From NCBI GenBank assembly GCA_043822305.1, contig JBDRBU010000121.1, positions 1 to 21,327 on the forward strand: a stretch of 21,327 nt of DNA. The letters run 5' to 3'. Positions 9,001 to 18,000 of the stretch are shown in pieces. A program made the position numbers. This stretch comes from Candidatus Firestoneibacteriota bacterium (GTDB lineage Bacteria > Oederibacteriota > D2-FULL-39-29 > JBDRBU01). Positions within the stretch are counted from its first letter, which is position 1, and each line of letters begins with the position of its first letter.

Positions 9001-12000
9001 TTACAGACATTCTAATTTTCAAAACTGGTGTACTGTAAAAAATTCTGATGTATTTTCATATGTTGCCTGTCATTATATTGACCTGGTAGCATTTATAACC
9101 GGATTACTTCCTACTCAAGTTTCAGTTTATGGGATAGTTGATAAATATCCTAATGGTTATGAAGGATTCTTATGGACCGATGGTAAAGTAATCTGGAATA
9201 ATGGTGCTTGTTTAAATGTTCAAAACTCGTTAAGTTATCCAGACAAAAGTCCGGGTGGTAACAGTCAAGGAATGGTTTTATTTACACAAGGGAAAGACGA
9301 TGGTGGAGTAATATCTCATTCTGACCAGTTTAGAGGAGTAAAGCATTCTTTTTTAACAAAAGGGACTGACCCGGGTGATACATTTTATAATGAACCAAGC
9401 CCAGATTATTTTCAATATGTGTCTAAAGGAGGTATTGGATTAGTTCCTGTCGGTTATGGTTATCGCTCAATAGAAGCTATTGTTCATTCGACTTTAAAGG
9501 TAAATGAAGCAACTGCTCTTGAAAAAAGAAAAAAAATCATAAAAGAAATTGATAAAGAAGGAATCATAGCCACACCGGCAAATAGTTTTTATAATGAACT
9601 CGTAATGGAAGCGGGTAGGTTGTCTATATTAAATGAAGGTAGGGATGTAGTGATAGAATATGGTCAAGAACCAAAAGTAAGATTTAAAGAAATTTCAGAA
9701 TACAAAAAATATTGAAATAGGTCTAATTGCTTCGCAATTAACCATGACCAATATTATATTTTACACTAAGGAAAGTCAATGCAAAAACTTGATTATACTA
9801 AATATAAATTAAAACCAAAAGAAGAAATTTTAGATATTCTATCTTCTAAAAATAATATCTTTATTATTTCTTGTAATAAATGTTTTAAAGAATTTACCCC
9901 GGAAATAGAACCAGAATGTGAAGAATTAACAAATATTTTAAAAGAATCTGGAAAAAATATAGTTAGATGTCTGCCTTTGGATTTCCTGTGTAACAAATAT
10001 TTAACCAAGAAAGAAATAGAAAAAGTAAATAATGATATATCAAAATCAGATGTAGTTGCTGTAATTTCATGTGGCTTGGGGATTCAAACAGTGGCTGACA
10101 TATTAAGTAAGTCAGTATATGGTGTTACTGATTCATTAGATCAAGGTGGTTATCATGGGATTACACTTTCAGCTGAAAAATGTAATGCGTGTGGGAATTG
10201 CTTTCTAACTCTAACTTCTGGTATCTGCCCTGTAGTTCATTGTTCAAAAAGTTTAGTTAATGGACCTTGTGGAGGAGCAAAAAATGGTAAATGCGAGATA
10301 GACAAAAATAAAGAATGTGCCTGGGAAAATATATATAAAAGATTATCGGTTCAGAATAGAACAAAAGAGATTGTAGATAAAAAACCACAGTTAAGAGACT
10401 ATTCAAAAGGTGATTTTAATTTTATTAAATCATATCTAGATAAAATAAGAGAAAAAAGATACGAAGGATTTTATGGTGGACTTTATCCAGAAGAAAAAAA
10501 GGAATTAACCAGGGCTAACTCAATAGAAAAATTCCCCGAAGTTAATACATTTATTATCCCGCTTTTACAGCATACTGGTGCAGTTTGTGAGCCACTTGTC
10601 CAAACAGGAGATATGGTTAAAGTTGGGCAGAAGATTGGAGATTCAAAAGCATTTGTATCATCACCAGTTCATTCAAGTATAAGTGGGAAAGTAATTGCCA
10701 TTGAGTTAAGAAAACATCCCTTACTTCCTATCCCGGTAACTTCTATCGTTATTGAATCTGATAAAAAAAGAACATATGATGATTCAATAAAGCCATCTGG
10801 AACTATTGAAAGTTTATCAAAAGAAAAAATTATTGAAATTATTAAAGATAAGGGTATTGTCGGTCTGGGTGGTGCTCAATTTCCAACATATGTTAAACTG
10901 AAATCTCCTAAGCCAATAGATACTATTATTATAAATGGATGCGAATGTGAACCATTTCTTAATTCTGATTACAGGATAATGATTGAGTACTCAAAAGAAA
11001 TAATATCCGGGTTAAAACTTATAATGAGATCGGTAGAGGCAAAAGATGGAATTATAGCCATTGAAGATAATAAACCAGAAGCAATATCTAAATTAAGCGA
11101 GTTGGTCTCTAACGAATCCAATATTAAAGTAGTAAGTGTTAAAACAAAATATCCTGAAGGTGCTGAAAGAATGCTTATTAAAAGAGTTCTTAATCGAGAG
11201 GTGCCATTAGGAGGACTTCCTTTTGATGTTGGTGTTGTAGTTAATAATGTAAGCACTGTTTATGCCATATGGGATGCTGTCTATAATGGTATGCCTTTAG
11301 TAAAAAGAATTGTAACAGTTGCTGGTGAAAATGTAGGTAAACCAGGAAATTATGAAATACTAATTGGAACACCATTAACAGATATAATAAAGTATTGTGA
11401 TATAAAAATGAAAGATGAATTATTATTAAAAATGGGCGGTCCTATAATGGGTATTTCTCAGTTTGATTATAATGTTCCAATTATTAAAGGAACAACAGGT
11501 ATGGTTATAGTTAAAAAATCGGATATTACTGATGTGGAAACTTCTTGTATAAAATGTGGAAGATGTGTAGATGTTTGTCCAATGGAATTAAAGCCTTCTT
11601 ATTATGTGTTATTAGCAAAAGAGAATAATTTCACTGAGATGGAAAAACACGGTGTACTAAATTGTATTGAATGTGGGTGTTGTGAAAATATATGTTCTTG
11701 TAAGTCATCTATAATGGAAATAATAAAAAAAGCAAAAAAAATTATCAGGGAGAAGAAAAAATAAGTGGTATGAATAGAACAAAGTTAGGTTCTGCAACGG
11801 CTAAAGGTGGATTTGCTAATGAAAGAAGTATTTGCAAAAAGTTTAATAATTGGGAAAAAGATAATGAAGTACAAATGTGGTTTGACATTATGGGATATGA
11901 CTTAAACAAGGTTGATTCTGTAAAAGCCATTCAGGTTCCTACGAGAATCAAAAAAAGCGAGATAAATAAATTTGGAGTTAACGAAGAGCAATATGATAAA

Positions 12001-15000: not shown

Positions 15001-18000
15001 CTAAGTTAATAAAAGATCTAAAACCTCTTTGTCAGGGAATTCATTTAATGCCACTTGGCTGGGATGATAAAGTTCCAAAAATATTAGAATTGTCTGGATT
15101 GAAGGTCTAATTGCTTCGCAATTAACCATGACCAATATTATAATTTTACATTAAGGAAAGTCAGGTCTAATTGCTTCGCAATTAACCATGACCAATATTA
15201 TAATTTTACATTAAGGAAAGTCAATGATAAACGAATATCTTTCTGTGTTTATTTTTTTAATATTAGCCTTGGGTTTCACGATAGGTGGACTAGCATTTTC
15301 ATTTTTAGTAAGAGATTCAAATCCATCTAATAAAAAGTCAAGCACATATGAATGTGGAGAAGAGCCTATAGGAACTGCCTGGATTCAGTTTAATATGAGA
15401 TATTACCTGTTTGCACTTGTTTTTGTTATATTTGATGTTGAGGTTATATTTTTATACCCTTGGGCTATAGTTTTTAAAGAAACAGGACTTCTTGCATTTT
15501 TTGAAATGATTGTATTTCTGGGAGTTTTAATTATAGGACTTGTTTATGTGTGGAAAAAAGATGCTCTTAAATGGGAGTAATTATGATAAAGTTAAAGAAG
15601 ATAACCGGTGAAGAAATATTAGTTAATCTTGATCTAATAGAGACAATTGAACGACATTCCGATACAGTCATTTCTCTAACAACAGGAAATAAACTCCTGG
15701 TAAAAGATTCTTTAGATGAAATTACTAATAAAATAGTTGAATATAAACGTTCGATAAAGAGTCAAAATGCCTAATCAAATTTCACTTCTAAAATCAAAAT
15801 TACGCAATGAAATCGAGAAAAAAAGGAATTTGCTTTCGCAAAAAGAAATAATAAAAAACAGTGCAATAATAAAAAAAAGATTGTTTGCAACTAATGAATT
15901 TAAACTTGCAAAAAATATTATGTTTTATGTTTCATTTAGAAGTGAAGTTGTAACTTACGATATGATAAAAGAATCTTTACAAAAAGGCAAAAGGATATTT
16001 GTTCCAATCACTAAATTAGAAGAAAAAAAACTTATAATATCCGAAATAAAAGATTTCGATAAAGAATTAGAGGTATCAACATATAGAATATTAGAGCCAA
16101 AAATTAAGTTTCAAAGAGTTTGTGATGCTAATTTATTAGATCTAATTATAGTTCCAGGTGTTGCTTTTGATTTGAAAGGCAATCGTTTAGGATATGGTGG
16201 AGGGTATTATGATAAATTCTTAAAGAATATGCCTTCTAATATTCCCAGAATCGGCTTATGTTTTAAGTGTCAAATTATAAAAGAAATCCCGGTAGATATA
16301 CAAGACGAAAGAATTAATATACTTATAACCGAAAAAGGCAAAATCAAATGAAGAACATATTTATTCTTTTTTCTCTTGTTTTTTTATTAGTGATAAAAGT
16401 AAATGGAGATACTTCTTTGGATGTTATTTCTATTAGTAAAATAAAACTAATAATTGAAGAGAAAGAATATGTGTGGGATGAAAAAGATAAAATTCCAGAA
16501 AAAGGAGAAGAAGATATTACATCTCCTTTTACTATAATTTCATTTTTAAATATTTTTCCCGGTCAAAAAATATCTTTATTAGAATTAGAAAAAGAAGTAA
16601 AAACTGCGAAAAATAGACTTATAAACTCTGGTTTCTTCTATAAGGTGAATGTAGTTATAATACCACCCAGGGAAAAATTAGATTACCGCACAATTTTGAT
16701 AAAAACAAAAGAAGGATTTCTTTACCGTTTTGGTGGAGGGAAGATATATGGAATGTTCGGGATGGATAATCTTGATGGGAAAAGAAAATCTTTTAAAGTT
16801 TTTCTGGGTACAAACCCAACTGGTATAGAATTCATAGATGAATCATTTTTAGAAAGTCATTTTCTTATGGGGGCAAAAGCACATTGTTTTAATATTTTTG
16901 ATTCCCCTGTGGCGAACTATCAGTTATTTAAAGCATCTTTTTTAAGTGGATATTTTATTCATTCAGATATATTTTTAGGTCTTGATTTCTTTTTAAAATG
17001 TATGAAGATTTTAGAGATTAGTTCTAATATTACTCCGGAATTTCTTGGAGGATTAGAAAGAAACGATATTGTTATAAGTCCAAATTTTTCTTTTAAATCA
17101 TATGAGGAAACTTCTTTGGCGCAATTTGAGTTTAATATAAACGGAAGGGTTAATTTCATTCTTCCATTAAAAGAAAGTGAGAGTAAGATTTCATACATAG
17201 TTAGAGGAGCAGCCAAGATGAAATTTTCAGAAGAACATTCTGTCAATCTTCAGGTTTCTACAGGAGGAGCAAACGAAACTTTACCTTATATGGAAAAGTT
17301 TAATCTTTACGATACCCAGGACATCTCTATTAGAGGTGGGTATAATGCTTTAGATTTATTGGTAGATAGATTCTTGTTAATTAATACGGAGTGGCGATTC
17401 TGTCTTGCTAAATTTTTTGTTCCCCCATTTTTCAATACACGAATAGAAGGATTTATATATTTAGATAATGGTTGGATAGGAAAGATTGGTGAAGAGAAAT
17501 ATCTTACAAATTATTATGATGGATATGGACCCGGCATAAGGTTATTATTTGATAATCCAGTGTTTGCTTATTTTTCTTTTTCATATGGTACGAATCTAAG
17601 CGGCCAAACACGGTTCATTTTCACAGGAACAGCAGGATTTTAAAATTTCGTTAAGACGAACAGATTAGGAGGTTAATATGTTTAATAAAATATTCCTTGT
17701 CGTGTGTGTTTTTATCAGCACAGTATACGGGGAGACTCTTTTAGAAAGGGTACAAAATGAGTTTGATGAAAAAGAAGCACAGAATTTGATAAAGGAAGTT
17801 AAGACAAATTTGACGGATAAAGACAAAGATCTTTATTTGGGAATTATCTATCACAATTTAGCCATAAAAAGTCCAGAGAAATATGTTAAAGAGGCAATTC
17901 AATATCTTGAAAAGGAATGTAAAGAAACAAAAAATGTTTTAGCCCGTGGGTATTATGGAAGTGCGATTACTATTGAAGGTGGATTATGCGAAAAAAAGAA

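Follow-up and report, generated by a model that had tools for sequence, protein, structure and literature searches.

Does the complex I-like pump encoded beside a methylene-THF reductase in Candidatus Firestoneibacteriota work together with that reductase, or does one pump gene merely share the reductase's transcript? The case bears on two unsettled matters: the electron source of 11-subunit complex I, for which PMC3144371 found no designated partner, and a possible coupling of the methylene-THF step to ion pumping, hypothesised in PMC8760232 and PMC13040438. Taken by itself the genomic linkage is a weak argument, but it singles out a concrete protein pair.

Gene layout and its conservation

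The window is a 21,327-nt stretch of contig JBDRBU010000121.1 (C121) from genome GCA_043822305.1 (G000); C102, C114, C32, C75, C14, C52 and C103 denote other contigs of the same genome. Most counts were made over 13 genomes of the class; the order comprises 12 of these, G000 and 11 relatives. The following features were annotated in the window.

8444..9715, + strand: Gfo/Idh/MocA oxidoreductase (Pfam); adjoins rnfC2 in 8/8 relative loci
9779..11764, + strand: rnfC2, MetV-like N-domain fused to an RnfC domain, putative NADH/FMN module of a type III methylene-THF reductase (PF12225, PF13375, PF01512 and Fer4; TIGR01945)
11770..12606, + strand: HinP1I-like restriction endonuclease (PF11463)
12609..13427, + strand: N6/N4 DNA methyltransferase of the same RM insert (PF01555)
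13418..14029, + strand: metV, Fe-S subunit of the reductase (PF12225; blastp)
14059..14207, no strand: 60-bp dispersed intergenic repeat, 2.5 copies
14226..15110, + strand: metF, catalytic subunit (PF02219)
15105..15223, no strand: the same 60-bp repeat, two copies, occupying the entire metF-nuoA gap
15224..15580, + strand: nuoA of the 11-subunit complex I (PF00507)
15583..15774, + strand: small FlbD-family ORF (PF06289); relative G009 has one too (tblastn)
15767..16351, + strand: fau, 5-formyl-THF cyclo-ligase (TIGR02727)

As the first-pass annotation had stated, nuoA follows rnfC2-metV-metF and an RM cassette lies inside the operon. The insert is specific to the G000 genome: it is missing between rnfC2 and metV in 8/8 relatives, and a tblastn search of the loci fetched at that stage with the HinP1I-like endonuclease gave no match. 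Promoter and terminator scans returned counts at about shuffle level, the best matches being the 60-bp repeat. The fau gene was considered as a third folate link, but relatives carry it at the start of a housekeeping run, fau-rny-phosphoesterase, and often have ABC-transporter genes between it and nuoA, so this reading was rejected.

The nuoA gene was located in 10 of the 12 order genomes, G000 included. All nine relatives with an assembled nuoA have metF immediately 5' of it, and in eight the full rnfC2-metV-metF run is directly upstream; the ninth contig (G005) begins within the last 7 metF codons. Because the metF-nuoA gaps in eight relatives are 0, 0, 0, 0, -1, -4, 3 and 82 nt, nuoA is almost certainly transcribed together with metF. 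This stop-start coupling has been retained across three families. No such link was found among 71 MetF loci and 79 NuoA loci of other lineages, so the claim that it is kept across the order and almost nowhere else holds for metF-nuoA. Nor does nuoA follow metF in 11 other loci bearing the RnfC2 cassette, and a close relative of the cassette was found on a Lentisphaerota contig without nuoA. A literature search (titles and abstract starts, subscription papers lying outside its scope) yielded no description of the link or of Firestonebacteria bioenergetics.

Such conservation may be mere inheritance, a caveat raised at the outset and borne out here. Neighbour pairs without these genes were conserved in 117/160 cases (117/144 after dropping contig-end pairs), in a control drawn from loci fetched around the chosen genes and not from a genome-wide sample; the Gfo/Idh/MocA gene upstream of rnfC2 is as well conserved as the metF-nuoA link. 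The 8-9/11 conservation of the reported links is the background rate in a highly syntenic order, and since unrelated neighbours are retained equally often, the link is best counted as a single inherited event. It is lacking, as had been reported, in the sister-order genome examined. There nuoABCDHIJK is unbroken and near hppA, MetF is distant from that of the order, and RnfC2 is missing. In a quick, unbootstrapped tree the order's MetF formed one clade (SH-aLRT 99) within an Elusimicrobiota group (100).

All 11 subunits (NuoA, B, C, D, H, I, J, K, L, M and N) are present in G000. The remaining genes lie in the run hom-thrC-nuoBCDHI-methyltransferase-folC (C102), as nuoJKL on C114 and as nuoMN on C32, all three placements agreeing with the earlier description. 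The earlier count of four operons was not sustained: the pump genes of the order are split into three loci, nuoA, nuoBCDHI and nuoJKLMN, the last being contiguous in 9/11 relatives; in the remaining two the contig stops behind nuoL. In G000, nuoL and nuoM are separated by a contig break and a truncated AlbA_2 gene. The C102 methyltransferase follows nuoI/H in 9/10 relative loci (the tenth contig ends), so the reported adjacency is real; fusion into one operon was not confirmed, as tRNA-Leu intervenes between nuoI and the methyltransferase in 10/10 loci (G000 and 9/9 relative loci with both genes), and in the sister order the methyltransferase already adjoins folC without nuo genes. Two of the six nuo block ends adjoin methyl-branch genes, with a rough chance of about 1 in 300 before correcting for the post-hoc choice of category; this modest coincidence, like the retained metF-nuoA stop-start coupling, counts against a pure-rearrangement reading. 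The layout first described is thus partly confirmed, real but over-read.

Composition of the reductase and of the pump

RnfC2 carries PF12225 at aa 120-207 and TIGR01945 at aa 231-660 (488 bits, cut-off 246). Its RnfC part resembles solved RnfC (E 9e-111), its N-domain is 42% identical to MetV (blastp), and its alignment contains invariant cysteines. MetF is single copy with 80-83% identity across the order. The clustering of rnfC2, metV and metF and the make-up of RnfC2 (N-terminal MetV domain plus RnfC domain) are those of a type III methylene-THF reductase (MTHFR). Judged from sequence, the set matches the published soluble NADH-dependent enzyme; that of A. woodii is described in PMC8760232 and PMC8515935 as soluble, NADH-dependent and non-bifurcating, with no energy conservation. 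The arrangement of a type IV MTHFR, hdr-mvhD adjoining metVF, was not found: the hdr cluster lies on C103 with flx and fhs, and metVF pairs with rnfC2. The MetV-RnfC fusion was rejected as a novelty, being already published and widespread (e.g. Lachnospiraceae, Oxobacter). An AlphaFold monomer of RnfC2 (mean pLDDT 70.8, pTM 0.58, Fe-S segments <50) was uninformative for domain geometry. RnfD was found in 0/13 genomes by a search whose control gave matches in 4/14, which upholds the earlier statement that Rnf is missing. Retention of RnfC2 in a lineage without an Rnf complex counts against the notion that RnfC2 must dock on Rnf.

A dedicated NuoEFG is lacking in the pump; the two NuoEF-like sets of G000 adjoin FdhA (C14) and CODH/ACS (C52) and score under the NuoF and NuoG cut-offs. 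A residue check verified that NuoD is without NiFe cysteines, and the two CxxC Ni-binding motifs of group 4 NiFe hydrogenases (Ech/Mbh) were not found. NuoD H25, H29, Y78 and D130, the quinone-site His/His/Tyr/Asp (H34/H38/Y87/D139 in Thermus numbering), show no variation relative to E. coli NuoCD. The nearest solved chains are Thermus Nqo4 (384 bits) and cyanobacterial NdhH (383 bits), against 253 for MBS and 208 for MBH, and the protein falls below the FpoD cut-off (391 vs 600). The charged or polar residues checked in NuoL, M, N, K, A, H and J and the NuoB cysteines are of the same residue type, with one R-to-K change; the acidic residues of NuoA are conserved. The 11 subunits are predicted to form a complete headless complex I.

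Proposed electron routes and possible coupling

We favour, with moderate confidence, a ferredoxin-quinone pump and a soluble reductase, two known machines cotranscribed through one old rearrangement. Electrons would pass reversibly from NADH through the FMN and Fe-S centres of RnfC2 to MetV, MetF and the methylene-/methyl-THF couple, and the reductase would supply corrinoid methyl transfer and a split methionine synthase as well as, in G000, the full Wood-Ljungdahl pathway. Electron transfer between ferredoxin and a quinone of the membrane would fall to the headless complex I; the quinone is most likely of demethylmenaquinone type, built by a MenA-like enzyme on a scavenged head group. The order's ancestor would have acquired the cassette between a membrane pyrophosphatase gene and nuoA, MetF grouping with Elusimicrobiota; the nuo operon would have fragmented into nuoA, nuoBCDHI and nuoJKLMN, with nuoA staying on the metF transcript. 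Co-expression and shared redox pools, without a physical complex, would be the outcome. In ACS-less members without a detected quinol oxidase the pump is probably reversed (quinol to ferredoxin to hydrogenase), whereas its probable partner in G000 is an NrfD-anchored Fdh-N. The starting points are the observed gene content, order, gaps, residues and tree; from them we infer which activities the proteins have (by family), which quinone is used, how events followed one another and in which direction the pump runs.

The statement that quinone and haem synthesis are missing stands as far as the tested head-group genes are concerned and, in G000, also with respect to haem. No match to E. coli MenB/C/D/E/H was found in G000, MqnA/D occurs in 1/13 genomes, MenG exceeds its cut-off in 0/5, and HemB occurs in 2/13, with no haem pathway in G000. 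It fails for the prenyltransferase: a MenA-like gene is present in 11/13 genomes and 6/6 complete ones, the ubi pathway search having covered the UbiA family. Its substrate is a candidate only, with no head-group pathway found and scores under the curated cut-off in 10 of the 11 genomes. Cytochrome bd (0/13), NrfD (3/13) and HemB together gave no conserved quinol sink; in G000 Fdh-N alpha exceeds its cut-off and has an NrfD anchor. A scan for the FMNylation motif of Listeria-type extracellular electron transfer gave one unconvincing match. G000 has the full Wood-Ljungdahl pathway and no Rnf, Ech or detected hydrogenase, so the complex I-like pump is its sole recognised redox-driven ion pump. 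In the ATP synthase c-subunit the Q and ES of the ion motif are present and the Thr that follows them is not, so no coupling ion was assigned.

ACS was found in 2/13 genomes (11/12 order genomes gave no ACS match, 4 of these being at least 94% complete), which leaves the majority of members without a large sink for methyl-THF. The C102 methyltransferase exceeds the NF005719 cut-off. It fits poorly as the Wood-Ljungdahl AcsE, which would be expected to co-occur with ACS and CFeSP: genomes without ACS retain it, and G000 encodes its AcsE elsewhere, next to acsD on C75, as a paralogue of 41% identity. A role in a split methionine synthase, or as methyltransferase II, suits it better. Parts of a predicted split methionine synthase occur as standalone proteins (PF02574 4/5, PF00809 5/5, B12-binding 5/5, PF14574 (RamA-like) 11/13).

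It is unlikely that the cassette serves the pump, on its donor face, as a dedicated partner for electrons in pump-linked oxidation of methyl-THF. Many MtaA-like methyltransferases would then strip methyl groups from methylated substrates, and THF would receive them by way of a corrinoid protein and the C102 methyltransferase; MetF/MetV would oxidise methyl-THF and trade electrons with NuoI, or RnfC2 would be a substitute NADH head, and the pump, forward to quinone or reversed, would fund the uphill step while Fhs regains ATP. URO-D/MtaA-like proteins, which may supply methyl-THF, number 4-39 copies per genome in 13/13 genomes, and corrinoid protein (5/5), RACo activator (11/13) and Fhs (5/5) accompany them; for three of the MtaA-like proteins the top-scoring families were MtaA/CmuA or methylcobalamin:CoM methyltransferase, with scores under the cut-off. 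With ACS so rare, methyl-THF would have oxidation as its sole large outlet. No other gene of these loci is as well conserved as metF (mean 82% identity), RnfC2 has no Rnf for docking, metF and nuoA are almost certainly cotranscribed, and NADH to demethylmenaquinone would support 4 H+ (computed with a potential of +36 mV). Yet methyl-THF to menaquinone yields only -24 kJ/mol (computed), the cassette exists elsewhere without nuoA, and NuoI, NuoB and NuoA show no order-specific extension against the cassette-free sister order. Moreover, RnfC2 permits direct transfer from methyl-THF to NAD+ when a dehydrogenase pulls (PMC8760232), and the set of a single corrinoid protein with a pterin methyltransferase, a homocysteine methyltransferase and a RamA-like protein equals the split methionine synthase published in 10.1101/192971.

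The first-pass annotation had tied the pump to the couple of methylene-THF and methyl-THF, in effect a quinone-free ferredoxin:methylene-THF oxidoreductase with MetVF fed by the pump's terminal cluster, as proposed for HdrD on the Fpo-like complex. G000, with its full Wood-Ljungdahl pathway and neither Rnf nor detected hydrogenase, would suit it, and precedent hypotheses exist for Rnf/Ech-MetVF (PMC8760232) and Fpo-like/HdrD (PMC7374477). Ferredoxin to methylene-THF was computed at -48 kJ/mol, which supports <3 H+ at 180 mV, against -73 kJ/mol for ferredoxin to menaquinone, enough for about 4 H+, and -23 kJ/mol for NADH to methylene-THF. The NuoD quinone-site residues are intact, nearly all order genomes lack an ACS match, the pump is older than the cassette in the class, and the coupling hypothesis in PMC8760232 concerns type II enzymes without RnfC2, the RnfC2 type being soluble and NADH-dependent. 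Together with the single inherited event and the Lentisphaerota cassette, this makes direct coupling very improbable. The first interpretation is thus upheld in part, as to a real link confined to the lineage and the missing Rnf, and not as to the direct tie to methylene-THF reduction.

About equally improbable is a CCG-domain protein as the true partner (HdrB of the conserved hdrCBA-mvhD-flx cluster, or an HdrD/GlcF-like protein), the folate neighbours being incidental. HdrB-like and 2x[4Fe-4S]+CCG proteins occur in 5/5 complete genomes, all five have an hdrCBA-mvhD run at 65-82% identity, and the Fpo-like/HdrD proposal (PMC7374477) again offers a precedent. The fetched loci, however, give no linkage to nuo genes; quinone-linked LdhH/GlpC/GlcF types are the top-scoring families for the CCG protein, with scores under the cut-off, and a GlcD-like gene, identified by eye, adjoins it, which again suggests a quinone pool.

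Comparison with known systems

For an Rnf-free, largely cytochrome-free order the prize would be RnfC2-MetV-MetF as the long-sought complex I partner, docking on NuoI and allowing either pump-driven methyl-THF oxidation, fed by dozens of corrinoid methyltransferases, or a complex I-linked methylene-THF step of the Wood-Ljungdahl pathway in G000; we regard this as unlikely.

The reductase shares with the A. woodii type III MTHFR its gene set and order and an RnfC2 with an N-terminal MetV domain, the 661 aa fusion being common to many Lachnospiraceae and Oxobacter (PMC8760232, PMC8515935). Here, in contrast, the host has no Rnf, most order members are without ACS, nuoA follows, and in G000 the RM insert interrupts. 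Like Phaeobacter inhibens (10.1101/192971), the genomes encode as separate proteins a homocysteine methyltransferase, a pterin-binding protein, a corrinoid protein and a RamA-like activator, but a large MtaA-like family stands alongside and may share the corrinoid protein.

The pump resembles the 11-subunit complex I of Moorella thermoacetica, Desulfitobacterium hafniense and cyanobacterial NDH-1 in having NuoABCDHIJKLMN, no dedicated NuoEFG, and the quinone-site and pumping residues. It differs in its three loci, in a reductase of type III, not type IV, and in that neither a pathway for the menaquinone head group nor a conserved quinol oxidase was found. Dispersed gene clusters are described as common for such complexes and no designated electron-input partner has been found (PMC3144371); the Moorella complex has been modelled as ferredoxin to menaquinone, feeding MTHFR indirectly (PMC13040438). 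The Fpo-like/HdrD system of Methanomassiliicoccales is likewise a headless pump in a cytochrome-free anaerobe, with proposed docking of a soluble terminal reductase (PMC7374477), whereas the present genomes have a bacterial NuoD and a MenA-like gene, and docking here is conjectural.

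Gene order and conservation of the metF-nuoA junction

The genome (2.15 Mb, 97% complete) carries the rnfC2-metV-metF cassette and nuoA on contig C121, and its MetF was matched most closely by relatives titled Candidatus Firestonebacteria. The features concerned (C numbers denote its contigs) were as follows.

From 8444, + strand: Gfo/Idh oxidoreductase, first gene of the run
After Gfo/Idh, + strand: RnfC2, 661 aa (MetV domain aa 120-207, RnfC domain aa 231-660)
Downstream of rnfC2, all + strand: HinP1I-like endonuclease, DNA methylase, metV, metF, nuoA, FlbD-family ORF, 5-formyl-THF cyclo-ligase (fau)
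15583-15774, + strand: FlbD-family ORF, 63 aa, between nuoA and fau
9721-9778, 14059-14207, 15105-15223: 60-bp dispersed intergenic repeat with small hairpin, tandem at two sites
C102: hom-thrC-nuoBCDHI-methyltransferase-folC
C114: nuoJKL
C32: nuoMN

The FlbD-family ORF occurred otherwise in one relative only (G009) among the fetched loci. Immediate adjacency of rnfC2 and metV, with the restriction-modification (RM) pair missing, was seen in 8/8 relative loci. RM genes are plentiful in this genome: the insert at 11770-13427, a truncated Eco57I-type gene (642-1862) that lies with a DegP-like fragment (238-636) where the contig begins, and many methylase paralogues.

NuoA was matched in 10 of the 12 genomes of the order, both others being 80% complete. 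The order rnfC2-metV-metF-nuoA was kept in eight of nine relatives; the contig of the ninth starts within the last metF codons, 3 nt upstream of nuoA. Since the metF-nuoA gaps of the eight are short (0, 0, 0, 0, -1, -4, 3 and 82 nt), both genes would very likely lie on one transcript. Here the gap is 113 nt and consists of two copies of the 60-bp repeat, which is placed precisely between stop and start codons and gave 30 matches over about 16 contigs (blastn, whole genome).

Among the best 80 of 330 MetF loci (genome_contigs), nine were from Firestonebacteria, seven with nuoA and two cut off within metF. In the remaining 71 nuoA never followed metF, several of these loci stopping shortly past the gene; in one, from Spirochaetota, a cluster resembling nuoM/H/B/C/D lay seven ORFs further on. 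Met genes were carried by a single locus among the best 80 of at least 591 metagenome NuoA loci, and by gene order and 71% identity it belongs to the same lineage. Within both samples the link is lineage-specific.

Inheritance and arrangement of the nuo blocks

In a synteny control, local to loci fetched around particular genes from 11 relatives, 117/160 neighbouring orthologue pairs, none including the genes discussed here, were also adjacent in this genome (117/144 without pairs at its contig ends). Gfo/Idh-rnfC2 (8 relatives), thrC-nuoB (8), folC-NYN (7) and yicC-gmk (9) were kept as well as metF-nuoA. A quick MetF tree of 80 rows placed the order as a single clade (99) within an Elusimicrobiota group (100), with the sister-order sequence (G012) distant on a long branch. 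Nested in the order's clade was a Lentisphaerota contig (L082) with rnfC2-metV-metF and without nuoA, a case of transfer or mis-binning; by eye, URO-D-like and glycoside hydrolase-like genes lie nearby. From the single clade and this nuoA-less cassette it follows that the link arose once. The cassette lacked nuoA in 11 loci.

The first-pass annotation described a pump in four pieces, partly fused into a methyltransferase operon. Neither point held: nuoJKLMN is unbroken in 9/11 relatives, counting one whose nuoL call is broken, the contigs of the remaining two stop after nuoL, and the fourth piece here is due to a contig break together with a fragment of an AlbA_2 gene; a tRNA-Leu separates nuoI from the methyltransferase in 10/10 loci with both. 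Two observations are left over beyond inheritance: methyl-branch genes touch two of the six ends of the nuoA, nuoBCDHI and nuoJKLMN blocks, a modest coincidence (roughly 1 in 300 before correction for the post-hoc category), and metF-nuoA stop-start coupling persists across three families. In the sister-order genome G012 nuoABCDHIJK runs unbroken to the contig end, two genes past a membrane pyrophosphatase; the methyltransferase-folC pair lies apart from nuo, and the metV-metF pair shares just 46% identity and has one MetV domain.

The reductase and methyl flux

The predicted rnfC2-metV-metF gene set corresponds to the A. woodii enzyme of type III. Both domains were present in all 120 RnfC2-fusion homologues among the matches listed, Lachnospiraceae and Oxobacter proteins included. 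Excerpts of PMC8760232 and PMC8515935 describe RnfC2 of type III as MetV at the N-terminus and RnfC at the C-terminus, and the trimer as soluble, NADH-dependent, not stimulated by ferredoxin and without part in energy conservation; coupling of Rnf or Ech to MetVF is proposed there for type II enzymes. Docking of the cassette on NuoI, as donor or head in methyl-THF oxidation, we hold improbable, though the strongest of the rival readings.

ACS was confined to this genome and G012. CooS, AcsB, AcsC, AcsD, AcsV, a separate AcsE, FolD-like, Fhs and FdhA are encoded here; H-cluster tblastn and the NiFe motif returned no hydrogenase. The split methionine synthase outlined in 10.1101/192971 is matched by the C102 methyltransferase together with a corrinoid protein of 207 aa and a homocysteine methyltransferase (4/5 genomes), both standalone, and a RamA-like activator (11/13). 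URO-D/MtaA-like genes number 4-39 per genome in 13/13 genomes of the class, with one standalone corrinoid protein only seen; three proteins tested resembled MtaA/CmuA methyltransferases below the cut-off, a family to which methyltransferase I proteins belong according to an excerpt of PMC9768040. If such proteins remove methyl groups from their substrates, ACS-less members have to oxidise methyl-THF, and the direction implied by the earlier claim of a methylene-THF/methyl-THF-tied pump is reversed.

The CODH/ACS cluster (C52:4026-18673) reads acsB, CooF-like, a NuoE/F/G-like (HydABC-type) module and acsC, a candidate NAD/ferredoxin-bifurcating CODH. An hdrCBA-mvhD-flx cluster ends in fhs (C103:2198-11023, L270); the hdr-mvhD run was found in 5/5 complete genomes, with fhs adjoining in this genome, G007 and G009.

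The pump, its possible quinone and known systems

NuoD lacks the NiFe cysteines; the quinone-site residues H25, H29, Y78 and D130 are invariant with E. coli NuoCD, and among solved chains Thermus Nqo4 and cyanobacterial NdhH come nearest. All residues checked in NuoL, M, N, K, A, H, J and B equalled E. coli except one R-to-K. NuoEF-like modules lie with the cytoplasmic Fdh (C14) and CODH/ACS (C52) here, and in G001 belong to [FeFe]-hydrogenases and GltD-like fusions. A further NuoH, belonging to a Hyf/Ehr-like membrane cluster (L044, L045, L056), occurs in five family-3 genomes; such a cluster is also present in G012 beside acsB and a multihaem cytochrome c.

With potentials of -450, -320, -200 and -74 mV (from excerpts of PMC9430772 and PMC8578096), computed yields at 180 mV were -73 kJ/mol or 4.2 H+ for ferredoxin to menaquinone, -48 kJ/mol or 2.8 H+ for ferredoxin to methylene-THF, and -23 kJ/mol or 1.3 H+ for NADH to methylene-THF. 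The first fits a three-antiporter pump best; quinone-free pumping from ferredoxin to methylene-THF, corresponding to the second, is considered quite unlikely.

Several results speak against a quinone. E. coli MenB/C/D/E/H queries had no match here. MqnA/D was found in 1/13 genomes, MenG over cut-off in 0/5, cytochrome bd in 0/13, HemB in 2/13 (this genome not among them), NrfD in 3/13 and RnfD in 0/13. In favour of a quinone, a MenA-like protein occurred in 11/13 genomes and 6/6 complete ones, over cut-off in one only, and a GlcF/LdhH-like CCG protein in 5/5; the head group may be scavenged. One of four UbiA matches may be foreign, since a 3.5-kb contig (C59) with genes archaeal-looking by eye (KaiC-like, UbiA-like) is possible contamination. 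A polyprenyl-synthase-like ORF, noted by eye at C7:13937, also speaks for a quinone.

No conserved quinol oxidase was found, which is the real unexplained point. One further feature speaks for a quinone.

C7:800-7789 (L271): Fdh-N of periplasmic type, anchored by an NrfD/HmcC-like protein; no HemB in this genome; cluster alike in G012

G001 and G007 share a possible quinol-linked module (L060, L065) of NapG/NapH-like genes, a PQQ-repeat protein, a NuoE-NuoF fusion and a NuoG/GltD-like protein; a comparable NuoF-type frame of 797-803 aa is seen in G009 and G010, and this genome lacks these genes. A CCG or Hdr partner for the pump, for which the Fpo-like/HdrD proposal (excerpt of PMC7374477) may be cited, is given little credence.

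We incline, by a slight preponderance, to a soluble, NADH-linked reductase and a pump passing electrons between ferredoxin and quinone, whose genes one rearrangement would have brought onto a common transcript and which would be connected through redox pools only. Both machines are of known kinds. New are the combination of an Rnf-less type III reductase with nuoA on its probable transcript and a WLP here with the 11-subunit pump as sole recognised redox pump; among the titles and abstract openings listed by the literature searches there was no prior description of either. In the excerpts at hand, Elusimicrobia lineages VII-IX pair the WLP with Rnf (10.1101/765248), dispersed nuo clusters are common with no designated partner found (PMC3144371), Thermacetogenium has a quinone-analogue-linked MTHFR and periplasmic Fdh (PMC6895022), menaquinol production is supported in Desulfitobacterium (PMC11238625), and the headless complex I of Moorella is modelled as passing electrons from ferredoxin to menaquinone, the menaquinol then feeding MTHFR (PMC13040438).
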